DNA of 32,774 nt, from positions 1 to 32,774 of the forward strand of contig CAIWKW010000060.1 of assembly GCA_903913365.1 (NCBI GenBank), in the 5' to 3' direction. Shown piece after piece: positions 8,842-32,774 of the stretch (position 1 is the stretch's first letter; each line of letters opens with the position of its first letter). Origin of the DNA: Candidatus Doudnabacteria bacterium. Its GTDB lineage: Bacteria; Patescibacteriota; Doudnabacteria; UBA920. Under the pieces are notes generated by a model. That model saw nothing but the letters and a program-made list of their open reading frames with translations. It did not search any database and had not been told where the DNA came from. The position numbers and the translations under genes are program-made.

Positions 8842-9948
8842 TTAATTTTCCAATTGTTTTTCCTGCTCCTCTTCCTCAACCACAGCCGGGGTTAGTGTTA
8901 TATGCTGCGCCGGCATCTCCAAAGGATGGGTAGTGGTAATAAACGTTTGAAATTTTCCCTGTAAATATTTCAATAAAAAGGTTCTTCTGGTTTCGTCCAG
9001 TTCCGATAAAACATCGTCTAAAAGCAAGATTGGTTTTTCCTCACCCTTGCTTAAATACTCGAGCTCAAGAATTTTTAATGCCAGCACCTGGCTTCTGAGC
9101 TCTCCTCTTGAAGAAAAAGGCGACAAAAATAAACCATCGCTCTTTAACGAAAAATCATCTCTATGCGGTCCAACCAAACAAGACGCCAGTAATTTTTCTC
9201 TTGATGACAAGGCCAGCAGTTTTTCTCTAAAACTTTGGCTTATTTCGGCAACCGCATCACCGGGCAGGGTTTCATAACTAACTTCCACCGGGCGGTGAAA
9301 ACCGGAAATTGTCGTGTAAACATCGGCAATGCCGGTGTTCAAAAAGTTAACGAAAGTTTTTCTTTCCGCAATTATGAAACTGCCCAAGCTCACAAGCTGC
9401 TCATTCCAAACATCCAAATCAAGCCCGTTATTCCTCCCGGCTTTAATATCCTGAAGTAATTTATTTTTTTGAAAAAGTACTTTTTTATATCTTCCCAAAG
9501 CATCCAAATACTCCGGATTTTTCTGAGAGAGAACCATGTTTAAATATTTTCTCCTGGATTCCGGAGTTTTTGTAAACATATCCACATCAGTTGGATCAAA
9601 TATCACCACACTAATAAAACCTTGCGCCTGCCTTCTTTTGGTTTTAACTCCGTCAATCAAAAAGTTGGCGTAAATTTTTTCCCTTTTTTCCAAAAAAATA
9701 TTGAGGGTGTGGCTTTGACCTTCCTTTTCCAAAACCAGACCGAGCTCCAAAGAGTTGGAGTTTTTTAAAAAAATAAATTCCGTGTCGTCACGAAAAGATT
9801 TAAACAGTGAGGCAAAATAAACCGATTCCAAAAGATTGGTTTTTCCCACAGCGTTTGGCCCGGTCAAAATTATTGTGTCCCCGGTTATATCAATATTTAA
9901 GCTTGGGTAATTGCGAAAATTCTTTATTTGAATATTTTTTATCTTCAT
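8842..9948 (-). CDS. recF: DNA replication/repair protein RecF
   Basis: 368 aa with Walker A GPNAVGKTNLLES, the signature region and Walker B ILLLDDVLSELD. Position downstream of dnaN supports the call. Confidence 0.95.
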   Translation of the reverse strand: MKIKNIQIKNFRNYPSLNIDITGDTIILTGPNAVGKTNLLESVYFASLFKSFRDDTEFIFLKNSNSLELGLVLEKEGQSHTLNIFLEKREKIYANFLIDGVKTKRRQAQGFISVVIFDPTDVDMFTKTPESRRKYLNMVLSQKNPEYLDALGRYKKVLFQKNKLLQDIKAGRNNGLDLDVWNEQLVSLGSFIIAERKTFVNFLNTGIADVYTTISGFHRPVEVSYETLPGDAVAEISQSFREKLLALSSREKLLASCLVGPHRDDFSLKSDGLFLSPFSSRGELRSQVLALKILELEYLSKGEEKPILLLDDVLSELDETRRTFLLKYLQGKFQTFITTTHPLEMPAQHITLTPAVVEEEEQEKQLEN

Positions 9949-10038
9949 TTAAGTAAAAGTTATCTTAAACGCTATTAATAACACTGTGTTAAACGCCGGC
10001 GCTTATACGGCACTATTGCTATAACACCTATTCCACTT

Positions 10039-11139
10039 TTATGATTTTATCGGCATAACCAGATAAACATAATCCGTTCTACCTTCTGGCACCAAAAGGC
10101 CGGGGGAATTGTCATCTATGGTCTTTATTATAACATTATTCGACTCAATACTTCCCAAGCTTTCCAAAACATAATGATGGTTAAAAGTTATTTCACACCC
10201 GTCCCCGTCAATTTTTGAAGGCAGCTCTACAACGCTTTTTCCCAAATCAGCCGATTCCGCAGTTAGAATTAACTGTTGTTTTTTTCCGGAAAACTCAAAC
10301 TTAATACTGTTTGTATTCCTACTGAATATTGAGGCCGCTCTAAGAGCACTTACCAACTGACTTTTATCTGTGGTGGTAATGGTTTGAAAGTTTGTTGGAA
10401 TTATCTGCTTATAATCAGGGTACGACCCATCAACCAACCTGCTTATTATTTGGGTTTCGTTAAAACTTACCGCTGCTTGAGTTTCGTTAAAAACAATTTC
10501 CAATACACCTTTTTGAAGACCGATAATTCTTGAGATTTCCGTTACTGTTTTTTGGGGTATTATTACCGGGTTAAGTTGTGAATTATTTTTCAGGTCCATT
10601 GTTTTCTCCGCAAGTCTATACCTGTCTGTGGCAGCAACTTTCAGTTCTCCCGGTTTCTCAGAACCCATATAAATTCCGCATATTTCCTGCTGGGTTTGAT
10701 TAGTCGAAGCGGCAAACACCACCTGGTCAATGGTTTTTTTAAATTCTTGGGCATCCAAGCTAATTTTACTACCACCTTCTAATTTTGGGATTAGTGGGAA
10801 CTCTTCCGGTGGTGAGGTTTTTAAGTTGGTGTGATAGTTTTCCGTTTCTATTTTCAGGCTTTCTTTTTCTGTTTCCAGAGTGATATTCTTATTTGGCATG
10901 TTGTTTATAAGGTCGGTAAAGGTTTTGCTTGTAACCGTTGTTTCACCCTCTTCTTCTACCTTACCTCTTATTTGGGTTGTTATTGCCACCTCGAGGTTGG
11001 TTGAAGATATCTTCATCACCCCGTTTTCTGTTTTCAGTAAAATATTTCCCAGAATAGGGAGGGTGTTAGAGGAAGAAATAATTCTTCCTGTTACAGACAA
11101 ACCGTTTTTTAGGTTTTCCTGGGTGCATATTATTTTCAT
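10039..11139 (-). CDS. dnaN: DNA polymerase III beta sliding clamp
   Basis: 366 aa with typical N-terminus MKI.C....L......V..I.S......IL.NILL. Located between dnaA and recF. Confidence 0.95.
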   Translation of the reverse strand: MKIICTQENLKNGLSVTGRIISSSNTLPILGNILLKTENGVMKISSTNLEVAITTQIRGKVEEEGETTVTSKTFTDLINNMPNKNITLETEKESLKIETENYHTNLKTSPPEEFPLIPKLEGGSKISLDAQEFKKTIDQVVFAASTNQTQQEICGIYMGSEKPGELKVAATDRYRLAEKTMDLKNNSQLNPVIIPQKTVTEISRIIGLQKGVLEIVFNETQAAVSFNETQIISRLVDGSYPDYKQIIPTNFQTITTTDKSQLVSALRAASIFSRNTNSIKFEFSGKKQQLILTAESADLGKSVVELPSKIDGDGCEITFNHHYVLESLGSIESNNVIIKTIDDNSPGLLVPEGRTDYVYLVMPIKS

Positions 11140-11330
11140 ATACCTGTTGTTAATAAATTAATTTATATAAAGTCTGTTATTAATATAATAGCTGTTGATT
11201 GGTGGATAAGATAAAAAACAGTTTTATTTAAAGGGTTAATCTTTCTGCTTGTTTGTTGTTTGTTCGGTGTATATCTTTTGGTAAACGGTTTTGTTGTGTG
11301 GTGGTTTTTAGTTTTTCACACAATTTTTAT
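11140..11330. other. dnaA-dnaN intergenic region with DnaA-box-like 9-mers (possible oriC module)
   Basis: ggtggataa at 11201-11209 (reverse complement TTATCCACC, 1 mismatch to TTATCCACA). tttttcaca at 11312-11320 (1 mismatch to TTATNCACA). AT-rich context. Confidence 0.4.
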
Positions 11331-12683
11331 TTAAGTGAACAATTTATCAAGGATTAAATCCACCTCTTGTTTGAACACCTGTTTATCTAATATCATGTTT
11401 TCCACTTTGTCCACAGCGTGCATTACGGTAGTGTGGTCCCTCCCCCCAAAAAAGTCGCCAATTGAGGGAAAAGAATTATCTAACTCTTTTCTGATTAAAT
11501 ACATCGCAATTTGCCTTGGCTTAACAAATTCTTTTTTTCTGGATTGCTTTATTAAATCATCCATGCTGATGTTATAAAATTCAGCCACAGATTCGGCAAT
11601 TTTTTTTATTGAGGTAACGCGTTTTTTTGCGCTGACAATACTGGCAAGAATGGTTTTTGCCTGCTCAAGAACCAACCCTTTGTTTTCCATTTGCTGGTAA
11701 ACTGCCAGGCGGTTCAGGGCTCCCTCAAGTTCTCTGATGTTATTTAAAACATTTTCAGCTATATAAAACAAAATATCTTCGCTTATACTTACCCCTTTTT
11801 TCTCCATTTTATTGCGCAGTATGGCTATTCTGGTTTCCAGATCGGGTGGTTGAATATCGGCTACCATCCCCCATTCAAAGCGGGATATTAACCTTTGCTC
11901 GATAGCCGGAATTTCTTTCGGTGGTCTGTCCGATGTGATGATTATTTGTTTTCCTTTATCGCGGAGTTCGTTGAAAGTGTGAAAAAACTCTTCCTGGAAA
12001 CCTTCTTTGCCGGCCATAAATTGAATATCGTCAATTAATAAGGCGTCGACATTGCGATATTCTTTTTTAAACTCATCCATCTTTTTTTGGGCAATAGCGT
12101 TAACGTAGTCATTGGCGAATTTTTCGCTGGTAACATATAGAATTTTAGCTTTCGGATTGTTTTGCAACAACCCGTGTCCGGCTGCGTGCATTATGTGGGT
12201 TTTACCAAGACCAACCCCGCCGTATATGAAAAGAGGGTTGTATTGTGTTCCTGGGTTTTTGGCAACCGATTGGCTTGCGGCATTGGCCAGTTCATTATTT
12301 TTTCCTATTATAAGCGTATCAAAAGTATATTTTGGGTTTAGCCCTGAACTGGTTTCAAGTAAGCCATTTTTTCCCATTGGTTCTTCTGTTTGTTGTCTGG
12401 GGTTTTGCTTGGTTTGCTGAATATTTACCGGTTTTGAAGCATTCCCAACCTGGTATTTAATTTCTTTTATTTCCGGGGCCAATGATTTTAAGGCTTTTAA
12501 AATTTCGTGGTGGTATTTGGCAGCTATCCAATCTCTGTTGAAAGCACTAGGGACAATAATTGTAATGTGGTCTGAGCCACGTTCCGCAATGCTGGTGTTT
12601 TTGAACCAGGTATTAAAATTAGCTTTGCTTAAAGAAATTTCCATGCTACCTAAAATTGCCTGCCATAACTGTTGATTGTTCAT
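11331..12683 (-). CDS. dnaA: Chromosomal replication initiator DnaA
   Basis: 450 aa with N-terminal LWQ..L......S...F.TW, AAA+ Walker A GGVGLGKTHIMHA, Walker B LLIDDIQF and the C-terminal DnaA-box-binding region (GGRDHTTVMHA). Confidence 0.97.
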   Translation of the reverse strand: MNNQQLWQAILGSMEISLSKANFNTWFKNTSIAERGSDHITIIVPSAFNRDWIAAKYHHEILKALKSLAPEIKEIKYQVGNASKPVNIQQTKQNPRQQTEEPMGKNGLLETSSGLNPKYTFDTLIIGKNNELANAASQSVAKNPGTQYNPLFIYGGVGLGKTHIMHAAGHGLLQNNPKAKILYVTSEKFANDYVNAIAQKKMDEFKKEYRNVDALLIDDIQFMAGKEGFQEEFFHTFNELRDKGKQIIITSDRPPKEIPAIEQRLISRFEWGMVADIQPPDLETRIAILRNKMEKKGVSISEDILFYIAENVLNNIRELEGALNRLAVYQQMENKGLVLEQAKTILASIVSAKKRVTSIKKIAESVAEFYNISMDDLIKQSRKKEFVKPRQIAMYLIRKELDNSFPSIGDFFGGRDHTTVMHAVDKVENMILDKQVFKQEVDLILDKLFT

Positions 12684-13028
12684 TGTGTTTGGTGTTTTTG
12701 ATTAAGTGGTTTTTTATCGGCGCCCCAGCCGGGGGATTTTTTCAAGTTATCAATACTTATTCTAACAGGGACTTATCAACATGTAAATTGATGAAAAATG
12801 AGCTTGTTTAAAAGGTATTATCTTAAGCTTGTTAACAAACTGTGGATAAAGTGTTCCTATGCAACAGACCAATTTTTTTTATTAATTACTGTTGACTATT
12901 TGGGACTTTTTCTTTATAATTATTTAAGATATTTTATAATCCGAATACATAAAAAGGGCAATTCCGGGAATATTTTTTTATATTAACCCGCAAAGCTTTT
13001 TTATATTTGGGAAAGCGGAATTTTTTTT
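12684..13028. other. dnaA-rpmH intergenic region: candidate oriC / dnaA control region
   Basis: Perfect DnaA box tgtggataa at 12841-12849 (reverse complement TTATCCACA). One-mismatch box ttatcaaca at 12773-12781. A/T-rich tract at 12871-12890. Canonical origin gene order. Confidence 0.55.
12892..12920 (+). promoter_or_regulatory. Sigma70-type promoter for the rpmH operon
   Basis: TTGACT (12892-12897), 17-nt spacer, TATAAT (12915-12920). Confidence 0.6.
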
Positions 13029-13163
13029 ATGAAGCGAACTTATCAGCCAAAAACCAAAAAAAGAGTTAGGGTTCACGGTTTTTTAAAGCGTATGCAAAGT
13101 AAAACCGGACGCAATGTTCTTTCTAGGCGCAGAGCAAAGGGCAGAAAAAAGCTAACCGTTTAA
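13029..13163 (+). CDS. rpmH: 50S ribosomal protein L34
   Basis: Below the ORF-track size cutoff. My translation is [44 protein letters not shown], a canonical L34 upstream of rnpA. Confidence 0.95.
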
Positions 13164-13206
13164 TTTTTGGGCAAACCCTATTTGTATTTAACCCTTTTGC
13201 ATTATT

Positions 13207-26034: not shown

Positions 26035-26111
26035 GGGCGTGTAGCTCAGTTGGTTAGAGCGCTTAGCTTATACCTAAGAAGTCCTAGGTTCGAGTCCTAG
26101 CACGCCCACCA
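26035..26111 (+). tRNA. tRNA-Ile, anticodon UAU, CCA encoded
   Basis: Hand-folded cloverleaf. Acceptor GGGCGTG/CACGCCC; D arm GCTC-AGTTGGTTA-GAGC; anticodon arm CTTAG-CTTATAC-CTAAG; variable loop AAGTC; T arm CTAGG-TTCGAGT-CCTAG; discriminator A then CCA. The D-arm/body is Ile-like. Confidence 0.85.
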
Positions 26112-27566
26112 TTGCTCCAAATTCATCTTTTTTGGAGCTTCAGCCATCGGCTGAAATGTTTGTTTGAACTGATAATCTTGCACTTCCTGATTTTCGACCT
26201 TAAGGTTCCAAAGTACGGAATTTAGTATTTCCTTTTTCTTGAGTGGATTACCGTTTAAGTAGTCAAAAGATGCGTAAGAGGCCTGTAATAGGGCCTTTTT
26301 AGTTTGTTCCAAAGTAGAAAGTGCCTCATCTTGAGTTCGGTTTTCCAGTTTTAAAATCCGCGCCTCGATGGATTTTATGTCTGCCTCCAGAGATAAAATT
26401 TTAGGCTTGAGAGAATCTTTAAGGCTGGGGTCAGTAGAAATTACGTCAGCGAGATTGGACAGCCTGCCCTGTTCGGTTTTGAGTAATTTAGCCAGTTCGT
26501 CTTTTTGAGTTTTGGAATTTGAGCCTTGCTGTATGGTTTGCTCTTTGGCCGACTCATAAGCCAGCTCAATATCATCGGGTTCAAGTTTGATTTTGTTTAA
26601 AACTTTAGCGACTAATTTATCGGCCGCCGTTTCGTTGAGGTATTTTTTATGCTGTTCGCATTTTCTCTTGCCGTTGGTGCAGTAATAATAAACGTGGCCT
26701 TTTTTCTCGGCGGCGGTTAAGGCACAGCCGCAGGAGTGGCAGTTCATAAATCCTCTTAACGGGTAAAAGTGGGTTTTTCTTCGTGGTCTGGTTTTGCCGG
26801 ACATCACAAACTGGGCTTGATCAAAAACGGCTTTGGTAATTAAGGGCTGGTGTATGCCCTGATACTGCTGGCCGTTTCGGGTAATGGTGCCGTAGTAAAA
26901 GGTTGTGGTTAGCAGGTGTTGCATCATAGCCTTGCTGTGCTGTTTGCCGGTCTTGCTTTTAAAGCCTTTGTTAAACATAATCTCGGCCACATCCCGCAGG
27001 GAATAACCGCCGGTGGAATAGAGCTCAAAAAGCTGTTGGATGAAAACTGATTTAATTGGGTCAACATCAATTTTTCTGCTAATGGGATTATTGGTATAGC
27101 CTATGGGAGCCTTGCCGGGAAGTTCGCCTTTTTCTAGTTTGGTTTTGTTGCCACGCTTAACATTTTTTGACAGGTCAATGCTGTATTGGGCGGCCATACT
27201 AAACTCTACGCCTGAAATCAAAGTATTGTCTTCGGGGTTGTAGGTGCGTTCGGGAGTAATGATTTTAGAAATGACATTGGTTTGCAGGAGCCACTTAATC
27301 GTTCCCTCGTCTTTGGGGTTACGGGCAAGCCGGTCAAGCTTCCAAACCAACAAGACGGAGCCGGGGTGTTTTTCAATCAGCTTAACCAGCTTTTCAAATT
27401 CAGGACGGCCGGGGTAACGGGCGGATTTACTCTCTTCAAAGATTTTATCAATTTTTAGATTATGCTCACGGGCTAAACCGGCCAGCTCGTTTCTCTGGCT
27501 CTCAATGGACAGCACTTGATGAGCGGAGTCTTCGGAAGACCTGCGGCAGTAAATTATGTTTTTCAT
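26097..27566 (-). CDS. Large serine recombinase (integrase)
   Basis: 489 aa. Resolvase-type N-terminus IIYCRRSSEDS...SIESQ...LLVWKLDRLARN, recombinase domain, Cys-rich zinc-ribbon (CHSCGC...YYYCTNGKRKC) and coiled-coil C-terminus. The last 5 codons overlap the tRNA 3' end. Confidence 0.9.
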   Translation of the reverse strand: MKNIIYCRRSSEDSAHQVLSIESQRNELAGLAREHNLKIDKIFEESKSARYPGRPEFEKLVKLIEKHPGSVLLVWKLDRLARNPKDEGTIKWLLQTNVISKIITPERTYNPEDNTLISGVEFSMAAQYSIDLSKNVKRGNKTKLEKGELPGKAPIGYTNNPISRKIDVDPIKSVFIQQLFELYSTGGYSLRDVAEIMFNKGFKSKTGKQHSKAMMQHLLTTTFYYGTITRNGQQYQGIHQPLITKAVFDQAQFVMSGKTRPRRKTHFYPLRGFMNCHSCGCALTAAEKKGHVYYYCTNGKRKCEQHKKYLNETAADKLVAKVLNKIKLEPDDIELAYESAKEQTIQQGSNSKTQKDELAKLLKTEQGRLSNLADVISTDPSLKDSLKPKILSLEADIKSIEARILKLENRTQDEALSTLEQTKKALLQASYASFDYLNGNPLKKKEILNSVLWNLKVENQEVQDYQFKQTFQPMAEAPKKMNLEQWWAC

Positions 27567-27795
27567 ATCGTTATTGATTTTTAAGAATTAGGGGGTTTTT
27601 ATTATACCCCCAAGAAACAAAACCGCCAAATATTTTTTTTACTTCGGCCTTTAAATTTTAATTTTCGTTTTTGGGGTGTGCAAGGGTAAAAATAATTTAC
27701 CTTCGTCTTAAAATATTTTTAATTCCCTTGACACCCAAAACTGCGAAAATTCTGTTTTCCCCATAATCAGTAAAAAATTAAAGGCGGTGAGAACA

Positions 27796-27963
27796 ATGGA
27801 ACTTAATCAAATGGAAATGAACACCATTAGATTCTGCTTGCAGGAACAGATAAATATCCTTATGGAAAGACGGGACAGGGTGGAAGATAAGGCACAGATT
27901 AACAAGAGAATCGGTTGGTTAATTATCGTTAAGCAGAAAATACCAAAACCAGTAAAACAATAA
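27796..27963 (+). CDS. Hypothetical 55-aa helical protein, divergent from the recombinase (possible regulator/directionality factor)
   Basis: My translation is MELNQMEMNTIRFCLQEQINILMERRDRVEDKAQINKRIGWLIIVKQKIPKPVKQ. Below the ORF-track cutoff. Weak SD (GGTGAG). Confidence 0.35.
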   Translation: MELNQMEMNTIRFCLQEQINILMERRDRVEDKAQINKRIGWLIIVKQKIPKPVKQ

Positions 27964-27993
27964 AACCAACACCCAAACAAAAACCAAATTTTT

Positions 27994-28305
27994 TTATGGT
28001 CGCTTGTCGGTATCTCTTAAATCTTTTAAACATTCCCGCTCGTCATCAGTTAAGCCAAAAAGTTGATTAAACCTCCAGCCGTCAGGAGCCTTGCCTTTGG
28101 CCTGGGACAACGGCGCTCTGGGCAGGTCAATATTGAAACGCAAATCCGGCCTGCAAGTAGGACAAACCTTAAACGGACAGCTAATCCAAGGCTGGCGGAG
28201 GTGGCGAACATATTTGCAGAATTTACAGCTACAAAGAGCGCGGCCTAAACTGCCGTCATTGTGGCTTTCATATTTCCCGATAGCTTGTGGGGTTTGATTG
28301 GCCAT
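27994..28305 (-). CDS. Cys-rich 103-aa protein (putative zinc-binding), unknown function
   Basis: CxCxxC ... Cx5CxxC pattern (CSCKFCKYVRHLRQPWISCPFKVCPTC). Immediately downstream of Rep on the same strand. Confidence 0.5.
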   Translation of the reverse strand: MANQTPQAIGKYESHNDGSLGRALCSCKFCKYVRHLRQPWISCPFKVCPTCRPDLRFNIDLPRAPLSQAKGKAPDGWRFNQLFGLTDDERECLKDLRDTDKRP

Positions 28306-28320
28306 CAGACTTTAGTTAAA

Positions 28321-29274
28321 TTAAAATGGCAAATTATAATCAGTTAGCATATCCGCAGGAGGCTGGTTGTCAGCTTGCAGTTGCGGATAATTAAAACTGA
28401 ATCTTAACGGCTGGGGGTGCTGTTTTTCTTGGATTATATTTTCCTGTATCCAGTCCACGATTTCGGGAAAGCCCTTTAAGCTGTAATCCGTTTTATCCAT
28501 AACTTGGTCAACAAAATCAAAGCCGTTCCAGACTGGGTATTTAATGTTTTTCACTTTGTGCAGGATAAGGGAAGCAGGGAGGGTGGCTTCAATATCCGAA
28601 ACCGAAGCGTCGTGCCGGAGGATTTGAGCCTCAACTAAACCAGTTGAGCGGAAGTAGTGTTTTTTACCGGCGGCGTGGTAATCACGAAAGTTCTTGCCTA
28701 AATATTTGGCCATATATTGGCCGTAGTTGCGGTCGTAAATTTTGCGGATGTCCACAATGCCAAAGCCCCAAAGTTTTTGCAGTTTTTTCTGCTCTATCCA
28801 CGGCTGGTTAAACAGCACAATGTGGAAATGAATCTTTTTGCTCTTGGGTTGAAGTTCCATAACGGCCACGTATTTAAGTTGTCCGGTCTGTTTGTCAAAA
28901 TAGTTCCAGTTAACCTTTTTAATGTAGGAGGTAAAATCCTTAACAGCTCTAGGAGCGTCTTCGGCTTGGACATTGTCTTTGTAGGTATTGGTGAAAAACT
29001 TGGCGGTTAAAGAGCCGGAGCGGTGAACACCCTCAATGATATTGGCGTTAATCAAATCAATTACCGTGTCTTGTGCCCTGTGGTAATTGGATATTTCAAT
29101 GGCTTCCGGACTTTTGGCCGGAGCGGGCAGGGGTTTGGGGCCGCCGGTTTTAGCATCAAAGACAAAACCGTCATCGTCAAACTTTGGAGGTCTTGGGCCA
29201 AAATGAACCTCGCGGGAAAAGTGTTTTATGGTTACGTGGTAACCGGCGATTTTTAGGGTATGATTGGTGAACAT
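28321..29274 (-). CDS. HUH-superfamily rolling-circle replication initiator (two-tyrosine, phiX A / phage CRI-like)
   Basis: 317 aa. Motif I FFTNTY, motif II HFHIVLF (HUH), motif III YMAKYLGK (YxxKY; compare phiX gpA YVAKYVNK), in the canonical order and spacing. Confidence 0.75.
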   Translation of the reverse strand: MFTNHTLKIAGYHVTIKHFSREVHFGPRPPKFDDDGFVFDAKTGGPKPLPAPAKSPEAIEISNYHRAQDTVIDLINANIIEGVHRSGSLTAKFFTNTYKDNVQAEDAPRAVKDFTSYIKKVNWNYFDKQTGQLKYVAVMELQPKSKKIHFHIVLFNQPWIEQKKLQKLWGFGIVDIRKIYDRNYGQYMAKYLGKNFRDYHAAGKKHYFRSTGLVEAQILRHDASVSDIEATLPASLILHKVKNIKYPVWNGFDFVDQVMDKTDYSLKGFPEIVDWIQENIIQEKQHPQPLRFSFNYPQLQADNQPPADMLTDYNLPF

Positions 29275-29473
29275 AGAAAATGAGTTGGGATTTTTCTTAA
29301 ACCCTTGGATATTATTGATTATGATATTCCATAGTATTAAGTGATACAGGACGCACGAGTGAAGCAGGCAGGTGGCAGGGCTTATTGGTTTGGCAAGAAG
29401 CCATTAAAAATTACTATGAGCCGCCGATCCCGCCGGCCTGAAAGGCCGCGGGACGCGGCGTGGCGGAAAAGTT

Positions 29474-29638
29474 TTAACTTGAGTCGCTGTGGTCGTTTGG
29501 GATGTCAGCAATGGCGCGAAACAGGTTGCCCAAATCACGCAAAAAAACCTCGGCTTGTTCCGAGGTTAATTCAATGTGATATTTCTGGGCGTAGTGCTTT
29601 TTGCACCGCTCAATTAGCTGTAGGCTAAACGCAGACAT
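29474..29638 (-). CDS. Hypothetical 54-aa protein upstream of Rep
   Basis: The track ORF (TTG 29671) was trimmed to the ATG at 29638: MSAFSLQLIERCKKHYAQKYHIELTSEQAEVFLRDLGNLFRAIADIPNDHSDSS. Function unknown. Confidence 0.35.
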   Translation of the reverse strand: MSAFSLQLIERCKKHYAQKYHIELTSEQAEVFLRDLGNLFRAIADIPNDHSDSS

Positions 29639-29879
29639 TAAAAAACCCTTTTGTAACAATGGATTACGCAAGGATTCGTTTGATAGTTTAGTAATTTAGC
29701 CTAAAGAATTTTATAATTTTGCCGATAGAGTAATTAGGTCTTTTTGCCCGTGGGGTTTACCCAGGGGTCTTTGTGCCTCGTAGCTCCGGCTTTGTAAGTT
29801 AATTTAGTGGCGGCTTGTTTGATAAGAATTTTATTATAAAATTCTTGCGTTGGATTGTTAATGAACTGATTGTAAAATA

Positions 29880-29909
29880 ATTATATACCGGGGATTATGG
29901 CGGTGTCAA
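29880..29909 (-). promoter_or_regulatory. Near-consensus sigma70 promoter for the 54-aa/Rep/Cys-rich operon
   Basis: The reverse complement reads TTGACA, 18 nt, TATAAT. Confidence 0.6.
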
Positions 29910-30007
29910 TAAAGTTTTTAAATATCCGATCTTTATATAAAAACAAATAAATCTGCTGTTTTTGTTTAAATAAAGCACAAAAGGTTATAAATAAGCCATA
30001 AATATCC

Positions 30008-30036
30008 TTGACAAGAATATAGTAGTATGCTATAAT
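30008..30036 (+). promoter_or_regulatory. Perfect consensus sigma70 promoter
   Basis: TTGACA (30008-30013), exactly 17 nt, TATAAT (30031-30036). Confidence 0.75.
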
Positions 30037-30042
30037 AATTTA

Positions 30043-30344
30043 AATTAAGGTTACCGACAGCGAACCCCCAAGTGCAACACCAATGATGAAAATCATTAAG
30101 CATTCAAGGTAAAGCAAGTATAGGAATCATCCCGTATTTACTTAGCCTTTAATGCAAAGGTGATGGAGTGGCGGTGGAATCAAAGCTATTACATCCGTTG
30201 CACTTCAAAGTTCGCTATCGGTTATTTGAAAATTTAGATTTGTTTTCCTGACAGTTTGTATCGCCTAATAAGCGGACGAGCGAGGATATCTTGTATACGC
30301 ATTTGCATATACATGAGGTATCTTTGTTCGTCCGCTTTTTGTTT
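30043..30344 (+). ncRNA. Unclassified ~300-nt structured RNA (stand-alone ncRNA or cis-regulatory leader)
   Basis: Long-range helix: 30054-30078 pairs with 30197-30221 (segments of 4+1+6+7 bp around a symmetric 6x6 internal loop). AATGAT-GAAA-ATCATT hairpin with a GNRA loop at 30082-30097. Extended hairpin at about 30100-30155. G-rich segment at 30159-30177. About 30-bp terminator hairpin at 30271-30336, then TTTTGTTT. No credible ORF. Confidence 0.5.
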
Positions 30345-30367
30345 ATAGGCGGCAAAAGGGAGGACTT

Positions 30368-30802
30368 ATGACGAACGATTTCGAGTCTATCGCAAAAGTT
30401 GCGATAGAAAAAGTGGTGGCTCAGCATCCCCACCGTAACGAAAGTTTAAGGCTGGAAGCGACATTCGTAATGGCGAAGGTCTTACAGCCAGAGAAGCGCA
30501 GAATGGCTTTCATCCTGTCGGAAAACCTTGATAGGTTGCCCGCTAGCGGAAAAGAAAGGTTCTCTCAAATATCGGTTACCGGTTGGGGAGGACATATGCC
30601 AAATCTGCCAAGTGGAACACCCGAGTACCGTTACTCGGTGTGGCGGATGTTTGAGAATGACGCCGAGCCGGTCGAAATCCACCGCTTGTCCGGGACAGAT
30701 GAAGGCGAGTACTATATGTCCCAGCTTGAAGTCAGGGACGACGGCGCCATCATCGCGTACGGCCTGGACGATAAAAAGTGGGAGTTTCCGTACGCCAAGT
30801 AA
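30368..30802 (+). CDS. Hypothetical 144-aa protein (orphan)
   Basis: GGGAGG SD 4 nt upstream of the ATG. GC-rich. No motif recognised. Confidence 0.6.
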   Translation: MTNDFESIAKVAIEKVVAQHPHRNESLRLEATFVMAKVLQPEKRRMAFILSENLDRLPASGKERFSQISVTGWGGHMPNLPSGTPEYRYSVWRMFENDAEPVEIHRLSGTDEGEYYMSQLEVRDDGAIIAYGLDDKKWEFPYAK

Positions 30803-30826
30803 TTGATAACACCCGTAGGAGGATAT

Positions 30827-31432
30827 ATGGAAAAAGTGAGATTGCTCGTAGTCGAAGATCGTCCGGAGTATCTACGCTGGGCGAAATTGGTATTTGATGC
30901 TCTGCCCAAACATAAGCCGGAGGAACAACTTTCCTTCTATAAAACGAAGGTCGAGCTGGAGAGCGTGACTTATGCCTCAACTTACGAAGAGGCTCTGGCG
31001 TCCTTGGAGACCGGCAACATTACCCACGTCATTACGGATATGTTTTTCCCTTCGGAAACCGATTGGCGGCAACACTTTACCAACGTGATGCACGACTCAT
31101 CCCGGTATGCCTTGTGCGATCACAGAGAAGAGGCTGAGAAGTTTTCCGAACTTCCTGAAAACCCCTCCGGTATCGCTGTCACCCTGGAGTGTTGGAAACG
31201 CGGAATCCCCTCAATTGTTATCTCACAGGGGAACCGGCATGTCGGCGTTTCAGGAACCCTGAGGTTTGCTCTCGAGAACATGGATTTTTTCTACGAGGGT
31301 AACATACAGGAGAGGATTTGGGTTCTGAATTTCGAAAGCAACCTGAAGCGCATCGAAATCGACAAAACGGATATCAGTTGGTGGCTAATGGCTTGGGAAC
31401 ATGTCGTCACAGGCGAACTTCACTTCAGGTAG
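30827..31432 (+). CDS. Atypical CheY-like receiver (REC)-like stand-alone protein
   Basis: AGGAGG SD upstream of the ATG at 30827 (track start is TTG 30803). RLLVVEDRPEY (beta1 acidic pair) and HVITDMFFP (phospho-acceptor-like Asp), but with a ~40-aa insertion and no output domain. Confidence 0.45.
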   Translation: MEKVRLLVVEDRPEYLRWAKLVFDALPKHKPEEQLSFYKTKVELESVTYASTYEEALASLETGNITHVITDMFFPSETDWRQHFTNVMHDSSRYALCDHREEAEKFSELPENPSGIAVTLECWKRGIPSIVISQGNRHVGVSGTLRFALENMDFFYEGNIQERIWVLNFESNLKRIEIDKTDISWWLMAWEHVVTGELHFR

Positions 31433-31450
31433 TCGCCTCGTCGCACTCAG

Positions 31451-31489
31451 GGGCGTCGCTAATGCAATCAAGCGGCGCCTCCTTTTTTA
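31451..31489 (+). terminator. Rho-independent terminator ending the GC-rich cassette
   Basis: ggcgtcgct (31452-31460) pairs with agcggcgcc (31471-31479) with 1 mismatch, followed by tccTTTTTT. Confidence 0.7.
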
Positions 31490-31505
31490 TGCTAAAATAA
31501 ATTAT

Positions 31506-32774
31506 ATGAAGCAAAGACTGAAAATTGGATATATTCCTATTTTAGACCACCTGATTTTGGGAGTAGCAGATTTCAATGACGGTGCCCATTTTGAAAACTT
31601 TGAGCTTGAAGCGGTTCGTTTTGAAAATTTGCCCACACTTGCAAACGCCTTGCAGAACAAAGAAATTGATGGCGCGTTTTGTCTGTATCCAATCATGGAA
31701 AATTTATATCGTCAGGGGTTAGATATCAAAGTGGTTTTGCTTGGACATCGCGAGGGACAAGTGCTTGTGGTAAATAACGAAATAAATTCGATTGAGAACT
31801 TACGCGGGAAAACAATTTTAATTCCTCATAAATTTTCAACCCATCATATTTTACTGCAACAAATTCTACAACAGAATGGATTAAATATTAAAAAGGACGT
31901 AACGATAAAAATCGGGTATAAAAAAATAACTGATGTCCTTGATTATTTGGAAAAAGGTGAAATCCAGGCTTTTATTATTGCTGAACCGCTTGGAACGGAA
32001 GCACGAAGAAAGAAAATTGGAAAAATTTTGGCATTATCACATAATATTAAGCTGCATCATATTGATTGCGTTTTGGTTTTAAACAGTGAGGTCTTAAATA
32101 AGAATCAGGAGGCCATAAAAGAGTTTATAGGTAGTTTGGTAAAGGCGGGTATGTTTATAAACGATTATCCCAGACAGGCCGCTGAGATTGGAGAAAAATT
32201 TTTGGGTTGGCCGAGCAAAGTTCTTTTAGAGGCATTGACCCATGACTTTGGACATATTTTATTTTGGGATTTACTACCAAGGGTGGAAGATTTTCAGGAG
32301 TTGGAAAACATTGCCGTTGACGAAATGGGTTTATGGGATTCAAAAATAGATTTGAAAAATTTTATTTTTCCGAAACTTGCCCAAGCCGCCTATCGTGAAT
32401 GGGTGATTGATACCAGAAAAGCAACAAAGGATAAAGGGTTAAACCGTTCATTGCCAGGGAGTTTTCAAGAAGCAAATAATAAATTTCAATCCCATTTTGA
32501 TTCTCCAATCTTTTTGAGCGGGATTAAAATTATATATCCGGGGGATAAATATCCGTCAAAAATATCCAAGATAGAAAAACCCGACGAGCCATACAGTGTT
32601 TTGCTAAATAACTTTATAGGGAAAAGTGAGACTGTCATCAATTCTGTACTACCTGAATTTAAAGCCTACGCGTTTGTAGATTCAAAAGATGGAATAGTAC
32701 CAGAAAAAATAATACTAAAGCTTAACAAAGAAGAAGCGGATAAATGTCTTAAGGCCTTAACTCTTGGAGAAGAA
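31506..32774 (+). CDS. NMT1/NrtA/SsuA-like substrate-binding-fold protein without signal peptide, with C-terminal extension (runs off the window end)
   Basis: Absent from the track (no stop). I checked the frame codon by codon to 32774 (423 codons). N-terminus MKQRLKIGYIPILDHLILGV... and ...IIAEPLGTEA resemble NitT/TauT-type binding proteins. AT-rich, host-like. Confidence 0.5.
   Translation, partial: MKQRLKIGYIPILDHLILGVADFNDGAHFENFELEAVRFENLPTLANALQNKEIDGAFCLYPIMENLYRQGLDIKVVLLGHREGQVLVVNNEINSIENLRGKTILIPHKFSTHHILLQQILQQNGLNIKKDVTIKIGYKKITDVLDYLEKGEIQAFIIAEPLGTEARRKKIGKILALSHNIKLHHIDCVLVLNSEVLNKNQEAIKEFIGSLVKAGMFINDYPRQAAEIGEKFLGWPSKVLLEALTHDFGHILFWDLLPRVEDFQELENIAVDEMGLWDSKIDLKNFIFPKLAQAAYREWVIDTRKATKDKGLNRSLPGSFQEANNKFQSHFDSPIFLSGIKIIYPGDKYPSKISKIEKPDEPYSVLLNNFIGKSETVINSVLPEFKAYAFVDSKDGIVPEKIILKLNKEEADKCLKALTLGEE

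Follow-up and report, generated by a model that had tools for sequence, protein, structure and literature searches.

A probable MITE-like insert in the leader of a variable gene cassette from a Candidatus Doudnabacteria bacterium, next to an invariant terminator-like hairpin

Prokaryotic miniature inverted-repeat transposable elements, or MITEs, measure less than 500 bp, carry terminal inverted repeats of 4-30 bp and flanking direct repeats, occupy AT-rich intergenic targets and yield transcripts with stable stem-loops (PMC10969869). Some are co-transcribed with genes, such as the Correia elements (CREE) of Neisseria, ERIC, RUP and the QMITE of Coxiella, and they share (PMC10969869; PMC2649163) with the locus analysed below a small, non-coding body, terminal inverted repeats of ~25 nucleotides (nt) with a short flanking duplication, a position in an AT-rich intergenic leader, a very stable stem-loop in the transcript, and presence/absence polymorphism among close relatives. 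This locus lies in contig CAIWKW010000060.1 of a Candidatus Doudnabacteria bacterium (assembly GCA_903913365.1), whose whole stretch of 32,774 nt is called the window, and comprises a promoter, a structured leader, two open reading frames (ORFs) encoding proteins of 144 and 201 amino acids (ORF144 and ORF201), and a terminator. It had been predicted from the letters alone to be one RNA-protein system. Here we conclude that three units make up the region, namely a conserved base unit, an insert and a cassette, and that the supposed structured RNA of ~300 nt most likely consists of a MITE-like indel and a conserved terminator-like hairpin.

The evidence that carries this conclusion comes from a sister allele. 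This is L009, a metagenome contig of 2230 nt retrieved by means of a 20-mer that was taken from the start of the long hairpin and compared on its reverse strand (L009rc); it comes from the same metagenome sample, 3300014839, as L001, which with L002 makes up two further contigs, of ~1 kb, that carry a close relative of ORF144 and begin at window position 30251/30252. In L009 the 171-nt core of the leader (30054-30224) is missing, and both the alignment and BLAST put the break precisely where the long-range helix that closes this core has its base. The two upstream BLAST segments of L009 share a 4-nt overlap, GTTA, which is the sole trace of the core: where the window reads ...AAATTAAG-GTTA-(CCGACAGCGAAC...GTTCGCTATCG)-GTTA-TTTG..., with the insert in brackets, L009 reads ...AAATTAAA-GTTA-TTTA..., with a single GTTA. 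Since L009 retains the promoter, the linker, the hairpin, the terminator, the flanking host gene and an intact homologue of ORF144, the rest of the locus can do without the core, whichever way the event ran. Because the break coincides with the base of the helix, this helix is read as the terminal inverted repeat of an indel unit and not as a conserved RNA helix; and because a related allele has promoter, hairpin and neighbouring gene without the core, the core itself is read as an insert and not as part of a new RNA-protein system. The original prediction had named in advance a homologous locus without the RNA helices as a finding that speaks against such a system, and L009 is such a locus.

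The insert measures 167-171 nt, according to whether one copy of the repeat is counted, and holds no ORF of at least 30 amino acids. Its terminal inverted repeats are CCGACAGCGAACCCCCAAGTGCAAC (30054-30078) and, as the reverse complement of 30197-30221, CCGATAGCGAACTTTGAAGTGCAAC; in the repeat search the arms extend to 26 nt (30053-30078 and 30197-30222, 81% complementary), a length within the range of about 4-30 bp given for MITEs. Taking TTA as the duplicated sequence makes the ends symmetric, CCGAYAGCGAAC, and the outermost 12 nt are identical save one C/T difference. The direct repeat, GTTA or TTA, stands on both sides of the insert and is single at the empty site. The G+C content is 43% in the insert, 21-26% in the leader flanks on either side, 49-52% in the cassette and about 36-41% in the host. 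The core differs from described bacterial MITEs in that a single copy has been seen, where several per genome or lineage are expected of a MITE, its cognate insertion sequence (IS) is not known, and its interior is folded into three hairpins and not into a single long palindrome; its TTA/GTTA duplication and CCGAYAGCGAAC ends were matched to no described family. A search of the literature on MITEs in Patescibacteria found nothing relevant, and no IS lies within the window.

From these features it is on balance probable that the structured core is a MITE-like insertion in the leader of a gene. A non-coding element of 167-171 nt would have been inserted, presumably by transposition, 6-10 nt downstream of the transcription start; once it was co-transcribed, its inverted repeats would have paired with one another, and it is this pairing that would have created the long-range helix and the appearance of a four-way junction. 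Any effect of the insert on expression, such as the additional cleavage by RNase III or altered stability demonstrated for the Correia elements, would then be a by-product of insertion. The case holds a caution, in that a transposon-like insert co-transcribed by a strong promoter can mimic a novel structured RNA, with a z-score near -9 and a clean multi-helix junction, and a single empty-site allele is enough to unmask it.

As a description of the letters, most of the original prediction held. The promoter is as perfect as had been claimed (Table 1), transcription being predicted to start at about 30043-30045, and its two hexamers and TG are unchanged in L009, in a segment (29912-30053) that is 91% identical. 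The absence of a credible ORF was confirmed for 30040-30367. The minimum free energy (MFE) of the leader (30040-30350) is -117.7 kcal/mol against -68 for shuffled sequences (z = -9.4), and its fold contains the long helix that closes the core, the hairpin with the GAAA cap, the extended one and a third, weak one, and then, set apart, the long hairpin with its U-tract; the repeat search and the MFE fold place the closing helix and the first two hairpins within a few bases of the positions first given for them, and the long hairpin with its U-tract, likewise predicted, has its stem at 30270-30337. It had also been said that the leader lacks tandem repeats and a known riboswitch core: Tandem Repeats Finder and a repeat search returned no tandem repeats, and over the leader no Rfam family reached its gathering score, a permissive Rfam search giving miRNA-precursor matches alone, on the long hairpin, all of them far under gathering scores. 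BLAST of 29950-30370 against phages and plasmids gave no match. The terminator proposed at 31451-31489 folds, taken as 31449-31489, and both ORFs, with the ribosome binding sites (RBSs) ascribed to them, behave as real genes in the comparison with L001.

Table 1. Coordinates of the features of the locus, of the segments shared with the sister allele and of the adjoining element (positions in the window; L009rc, L009 on its reverse strand)
Feature	Position	Strand	Remarks
Integrated element, 3.8 kb, outside the module	26097-29911	-	serine recombinase, 103-aa ORF, Rep (PF23343), 65-aa ORF
Segment shared with L009rc 180-321	29912-30053		91% identity; promoter region, both hexamers identical
Sigma-70-type promoter, TTGACA, 17 nt, TG-TATAAT	30008-30036	+	12/12 consensus positions, TG extension (promoter scan)
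Left direct repeat GTTA (or TTA at 30051-30053)	30050-30053		candidate target-site duplication; one copy in L009
Probable MITE-like insert, 167 nt, or 171 nt with one repeat copy	30054-30220		absent from L009
Right direct repeat GTTA	30221-30224		overlap of the BLAST segments with L009
Segment shared with L009rc 318-452	30221-30355		98% identity; linker and hairpin
AU-rich leader/linker	30225-30269	+	common to the empty allele; 39/42 positions (30221-30262) identical to L009
Long hairpin, 28 bp with 2-nt bulge, GC-rich base, U-rich tail	30270-30345	+	z = -10.8
ORF144, fast-evolving orphan protein	30368-30802	+	RBS GGGAGG; relatives in L001 and L009
ORF201, divergent stand-alone receiver (REC)-like protein	30827-31432	+	ATG after AGGAGG
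Intrinsic terminator of the two-gene unit	31449-31489	+	folds; L009 homology resumes at 31469
Segment shared with L009rc 945-2230	31469-32754		92% identity; terminator 3′ arm and flanking NMT1-like host gene

On the question of strand, the folding of the core gives mixed evidence. Its inner part of 118 nt (30079-30196) forms three hairpins, of which the MFE fold places the GAAA-capped one at 30083-30098 and the extended one at 30100-30155, and the transcribed strand, at -36.7 kcal/mol (z = -5.2), gives it a better fold than the opposite strand, at -28.3 kcal/mol (z = -2.5), most of this difference having its source in one weak hairpin. The closing helix is stronger on the minus strand, on which three C.A mismatches turn into G.U pairs, and the whole core is about equal on both (-68.4 versus -70.6 kcal/mol); the asymmetry of G.U pairs decides no strand preference for it. 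Core, linker and hairpin fold as independent domains, with no competing pairing in either the MFE or the centroid folds.

For the long hairpin of the base unit, this asymmetry is decisive and points to the plus strand. The stem takes up 68 nt and passes into a UUUGUUUA tail, the whole being enclosed by an outer helix (30262-30267 with 30346-30351). It has four G.U pairs on the plus strand only, and because these become C.A on the other strand (-50.2 versus -38.3 kcal/mol) the hairpin would work on the plus strand, that is, the one transcribed from the promoter. With a GC-rich stem (base GCGGACG/CGUCCGC), a U-tract directly after it (tail UUUUUGUUUA) and a preference of 12 kcal/mol for the plus strand, it has the properties of an intrinsic terminator, its stem being far longer than is usual for one, and it is read as an intrinsic-terminator-like leader element. 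Its sequence is invariant: 116 of 116 nt of the hairpin region are identical between the window and L001, and 93 of 93 between the window and L009, against a synonymous divergence (dS) of 0.29-0.39 in the adjacent ORFs and the host gene. The terminator downstream of the cassette has in L009 a stem that differs from that of the window and still folds, followed by the same T-tract. No match to the long-hairpin pattern occurs in viral_contigs, and the stretch from the hairpin to the RBS of ORF144 holds no promoter-like site.

The base unit would accordingly be laid out as a very strong constitutive promoter, a short AU-rich leader, the invariant hairpin, a variable protein cassette and a second terminator. 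Most transcripts would stop at the long hairpin, leaving a short RNA of about 130 nt in L009 and of about 300 nt in the window, and the ORFs would be expressed by read-through; the 22-bp uninterrupted duplex of the hairpin would also suit RNase III, and the transcripts could be processed there. The layout does not account for a constraint on the sequence of the hairpin leader, free of substitutions over 105-116 nt, and not on its stem alone, in front of a gene whose protein keeps 35% identity in L009.

This protein is ORF144. It is a real gene, 85% identical to its counterpart in L001 (P0001) with a ratio of nonsynonymous to synonymous substitution (dN/dS) of 0.27, and its homologue in L009, of 146 amino acids and in the same place, is 35% identical (E = 2e-29). 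Because the sequences on either side of this divergent gene are 91-100% identical, the locus behaves like a variable cassette set into conserved surroundings. In the window the cassette spans 30356-31468 (1113 nt, ORF144 and ORF201), and in L009, on the reverse strand, 453-944 (492 nt) with a single ORF, the ORF144 homologue. The composition of the cassette is foreign to the host. ORF144 has no match in Pfam, NCBIfam, PADLOC, PHROGs or the sequences of the PDB, and tblastn of both ORFs against phages and plasmids gave no match. The AlphaFold models of the two proteins were unusable (predicted local distance difference test, pLDDT, 38 and 45, the latter for ORF144), and Foldseek returned noise.

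The second protein, ORF201, is under strong purifying selection (dN/dS 0.08 against the L001 allele). It looked like an orphan in a word-indexed search, and an exhaustive HMMER search yielded 51 representative relatives, of which 20 lie below 1e-10. In the alignment of this family the motifs LLVIED, YASTYEEA, DGVITDLFFPS, ENPSGL, SQGxRHxGxLGxVR and VDKxxxxTW recur, D71 never varies and D11, S133 and K180 hardly do, which at the level of sequence is the receiver-domain pattern of acidic pocket, Ser/Thr and Lys. The prediction of an atypical receiver-like protein was thus upheld: PF00072 gives no match to ORF201 itself at E <= 1 and weak ones to 25 of 34 family members (best 1.7e-5), and against the PDB the family profile finds response-regulator receivers at about 1e-5, over β1-β3, the N-terminal half, only. 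Compared with the receivers of response regulators (PF00072), the family keeps the acidic residue of β1, the Asp of β3 in DLFFPS, the Ser of β4 and the Lys of β5, and its matches to CheY-like receivers cover the N-terminal half; it departs from them in that ORF201 itself falls below Pfam thresholds, in the additional invariant motifs ENPSGL, SQGxRHxG and VDKxxxxTW, in a variable insertion after β3 (35-40 residues in ORF201, up to about 100 in some relatives), in the lack of an output domain and of a kinase neighbour, and in the archaeal settings of those relatives that have informative neighbours. Pfam holds no dedicated model for the family, and none of its members was found in viral_contigs.

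Contigs of six relatives were fetched, three with informative neighbours and three too short to place. The informative neighbours (Cdc6/Orc-like, ribosomal L1/L10/P1, archaeal-type D-Tyr-tRNA deacylase) are genes typically seen on archaeal chromosomes, and two of these three relatives are divergent to a gene of a TrmB-family regulator. The relatives in archaeal settings lie at L010 5001-5642, L013 4001-4699 and L014 3724-4422; L014 repeats the locus of L013, and both distinct loci are divergent to the TrmB-family gene. By its genes (dnaA-dnaN-recF, a PBP1-type penicillin-binding protein and tyrosyl-tRNA synthetase, TyrRS) the host of the window is bacterial, and the presence of ORF201 in such a genome suggests a transfer between domains. 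ORF144 and ORF201 had been grouped as the effector genes of one module; since L009 lacks ORF201 and none of the six contigs with ORF201 relatives carries an ORF144-like neighbour, the two are not a conserved pair. The cassette would rather consist of a fast-diverging orphan, ORF144, joined in some alleles only by the divergent receiver-domain protein. What remains of interest in the locus is, then, an invariant hairpin before a hypervariable gene, and a receiver-like family of archaeal appearance in a bacterium.

Several observations weigh against insertion as the origin of the core. Neither a second copy of it nor a parent IS was found in ~81 kb (the window and 16 fetched loci), with four patterns in viral_contigs or with one metagenome 20-mer; the better folding of the inner core on the transcribed strand would also fit a functional RNA; core and ORF201 are jointly present in the window and jointly absent from L009, in a sample of two; the independent comparison alleles number only two; and a slippage deletion between the GTTA repeats, stimulated by the hairpin as in precise transposon excision, would leave an identical footprint, for which reason the direction of the event is inferred and not proven. 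The core could then be an ancestral leader RNA with a function of its own, sensing a ligand or a protein and possibly working with ORF201, and L009 would have lost both by a palindrome-stimulated deletion. Such a history would suit the start of transcription about 6-10 nt before the closing helix and the significant stability of the inner hairpins, as well as the shared fate of core and ORF201 and the failure to find a further copy in the sequences searched. We nevertheless consider it unlikely: the core has no match in Rfam and no alternative pairing with the terminator hairpin, the 25-nt closing helix with its nearly matching outer 12 nt and its flanking direct repeats is transposon-like, promoter, hairpin and ORF are intact without it in L009, and relatives of ORF201 occur elsewhere in unrelated contexts. 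A riboswitch or cis-regulatory leader is not supported, given the absence of the core from the homologous L009 leader, the lack of an Rfam family, and the lack of mutually exclusive terminator and antiterminator pairing. With riboswitch and attenuator leaders the locus shares a structured 5′ leader with, at its end and shortly ahead of the RBS, a terminator hairpin; it differs from them in having no Rfam aptamer and no antiterminator alternative, in that the putative aptamer is an indel, and in the unusual length (28 bp) and invariant sequence of the terminator stem. Of the resemblance to type III toxin-antitoxin loci and riboswitches that had been pointed out, the order of the parts stands; tandem repeats, whose absence had been pointed out as well, a ToxN-type toxin, an aptamer and an antiterminator are lacking. 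Like ToxIN and similar systems, the locus has in succession a promoter, a non-coding RNA, an intrinsic terminator and a protein gene that would be reached by read-through, but it lacks tandem RNA repeats and a ToxN-like protein (no match of ORF144 to endoribonucleases of the ToxN/CptN/TenpN type by sequence in PADLOC, Pfam, NCBIfam or the PDB), and its core RNA is absent from the sister allele. In another reading the invariant hairpin leader, and not the core, would be the functional RNA, forming with ORF144 a type III-like toxin-antitoxin or another defence or addiction module in which the small RNA is abundant and the effector made by read-through. The order of promoter, non-coding RNA, terminator and ORF is kept in three alleles, the hairpin sequence is extremely conserved, ORF144 diverges fast between conserved flanks, and the cassette is compositionally foreign; yet tandem repeats are absent, ORF144 matches nothing in PADLOC, Pfam or PHROGs, the structure models are too poor to assess a fold like that of ToxN or MazF, and an invariant RNA beside a protein changed at 65% of its positions is the reverse of what co-evolution of RNA and protein would give, and we regard this module as improbable. 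Equally doubtful, and bolder, is the idea that the invariant, strand-specific 68-nt hairpin leader, driven from a perfect promoter, and the hypervariable ORF144 make up a locus of an undescribed type, with a variable effector under RNA control and a role in defence, addiction or immunity, into which the 171-nt core was recruited as a mobile structured RNA together with the receiver-like protein.

A last alternative takes the structured region not as RNA at all, but as a DNA element of the adjoining rolling-circle replicon, that is, a single-strand origin or an initiation signal on single-stranded DNA. The rolling-circle Rep is encoded 770 nt away, on the opposite strand; as RNA and as DNA alike, the two strands of the core are about equal in folding; and a minus-strand TAGCGA motif resembles the CS-6 motif of ssoA origins. 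Against it, 142 nt common to L009 separate the core from the Rep element, and a further 179 nt of L009 to the left are unlike that element; the related Rep contigs end before any such region, and one of them, L004, is a complete element of 3.6 kb that lacks it; finally, the long hairpin folds on the plus strand and not on the Rep-sense strand that is expected to be displaced. It was rejected on position, as lying outside the element delimited by L009 and L004, and seems to us very improbable indeed. A MITE-like insertion thus remains the preferred reading of the core.

The replicon itself carries a large serine recombinase gene whose 3′ end overlaps tRNA-Ile(TAT), and it has a perfect promoter of its own (29909-29880). 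Because the window and L009 are homologous from 29912 on, and L009 differs to the left of it, encoding there the N-terminus of a ribbon-helix-helix-like protein, the Rep element most likely ends near 29911, with the module adjoining it. The module had been taken for the cargo of a mobile element; lying outside the Rep/serine-recombinase element as its relatives delimit it, it is probably no such cargo. The same gene set is found in L003-L007, L003 ending on a tRNA Lys and L004 on a tRNA Leu, and the whole of contig L004 (3612 nt) begins just upstream of the small ORF and extends to the end of the tRNA. No displaced tRNA 3′ end was found to mark the other border of the element in the window, and in a search based on Rep the contigs of relatives all ended 250-555 nt upstream of rep, and carry no information on the leader RNA.

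With the window (26035-29911), L003, L004 and L005-L007, a family of integrative elements of about 3.6-3.8 kb can be outlined, in which a small ORF stands between a large serine recombinase and a rolling-circle Rep (PF23343) and another small ORF lies beyond Rep. A tRNA is abutted in the three elements that have sequence at that end, and the recombinase 3′ end overlaps it in the window and in L004. The breaking of metagenome contigs upstream of rep would fit a mixture of integrated and excised forms. Upstream of rep, the non-coding stretch 29294-29408, which includes ...CCTGTATCACTTAATACTAT, is 83-94% identical across related elements whose Rep proteins are 57-80% identical, and may be regarded as a candidate double-strand origin with its nick site, on the rep-sense strand. 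The 430-nt gap between the recombinase and the 103-aa ORF (27567-27993) has a promoter-like TTGACA...CATAAT and a small plus-strand ORF (about 27797-27964), and would be a possible site for the single-strand origin of the element or for a regulator. The tRNA-Ile at 26035-26111, the integration site of the element, has the anticodon TAT, and this is an uncommon isoacceptor in bacteria.

Between element and module, two perfect 12/12 promoters stand back to back about 100 nt apart (29880-29909 on the minus strand, 30008-30036 on the plus strand), the -35 hexamer (TTGAC) of the leftward one falling at the edge of the L009 homology; L009 carries a leftward promoter-like site of its own, with the palindrome GTTAATACTTAGTATTAAC, ahead of the ribbon-helix-helix-like gene. 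Elsewhere in the window recF, dnaN and dnaA follow one another on the minus strand (8842-13200), next to an AT-rich gap (about 12684-13206), and this is probably the region of the chromosomal replication origin.

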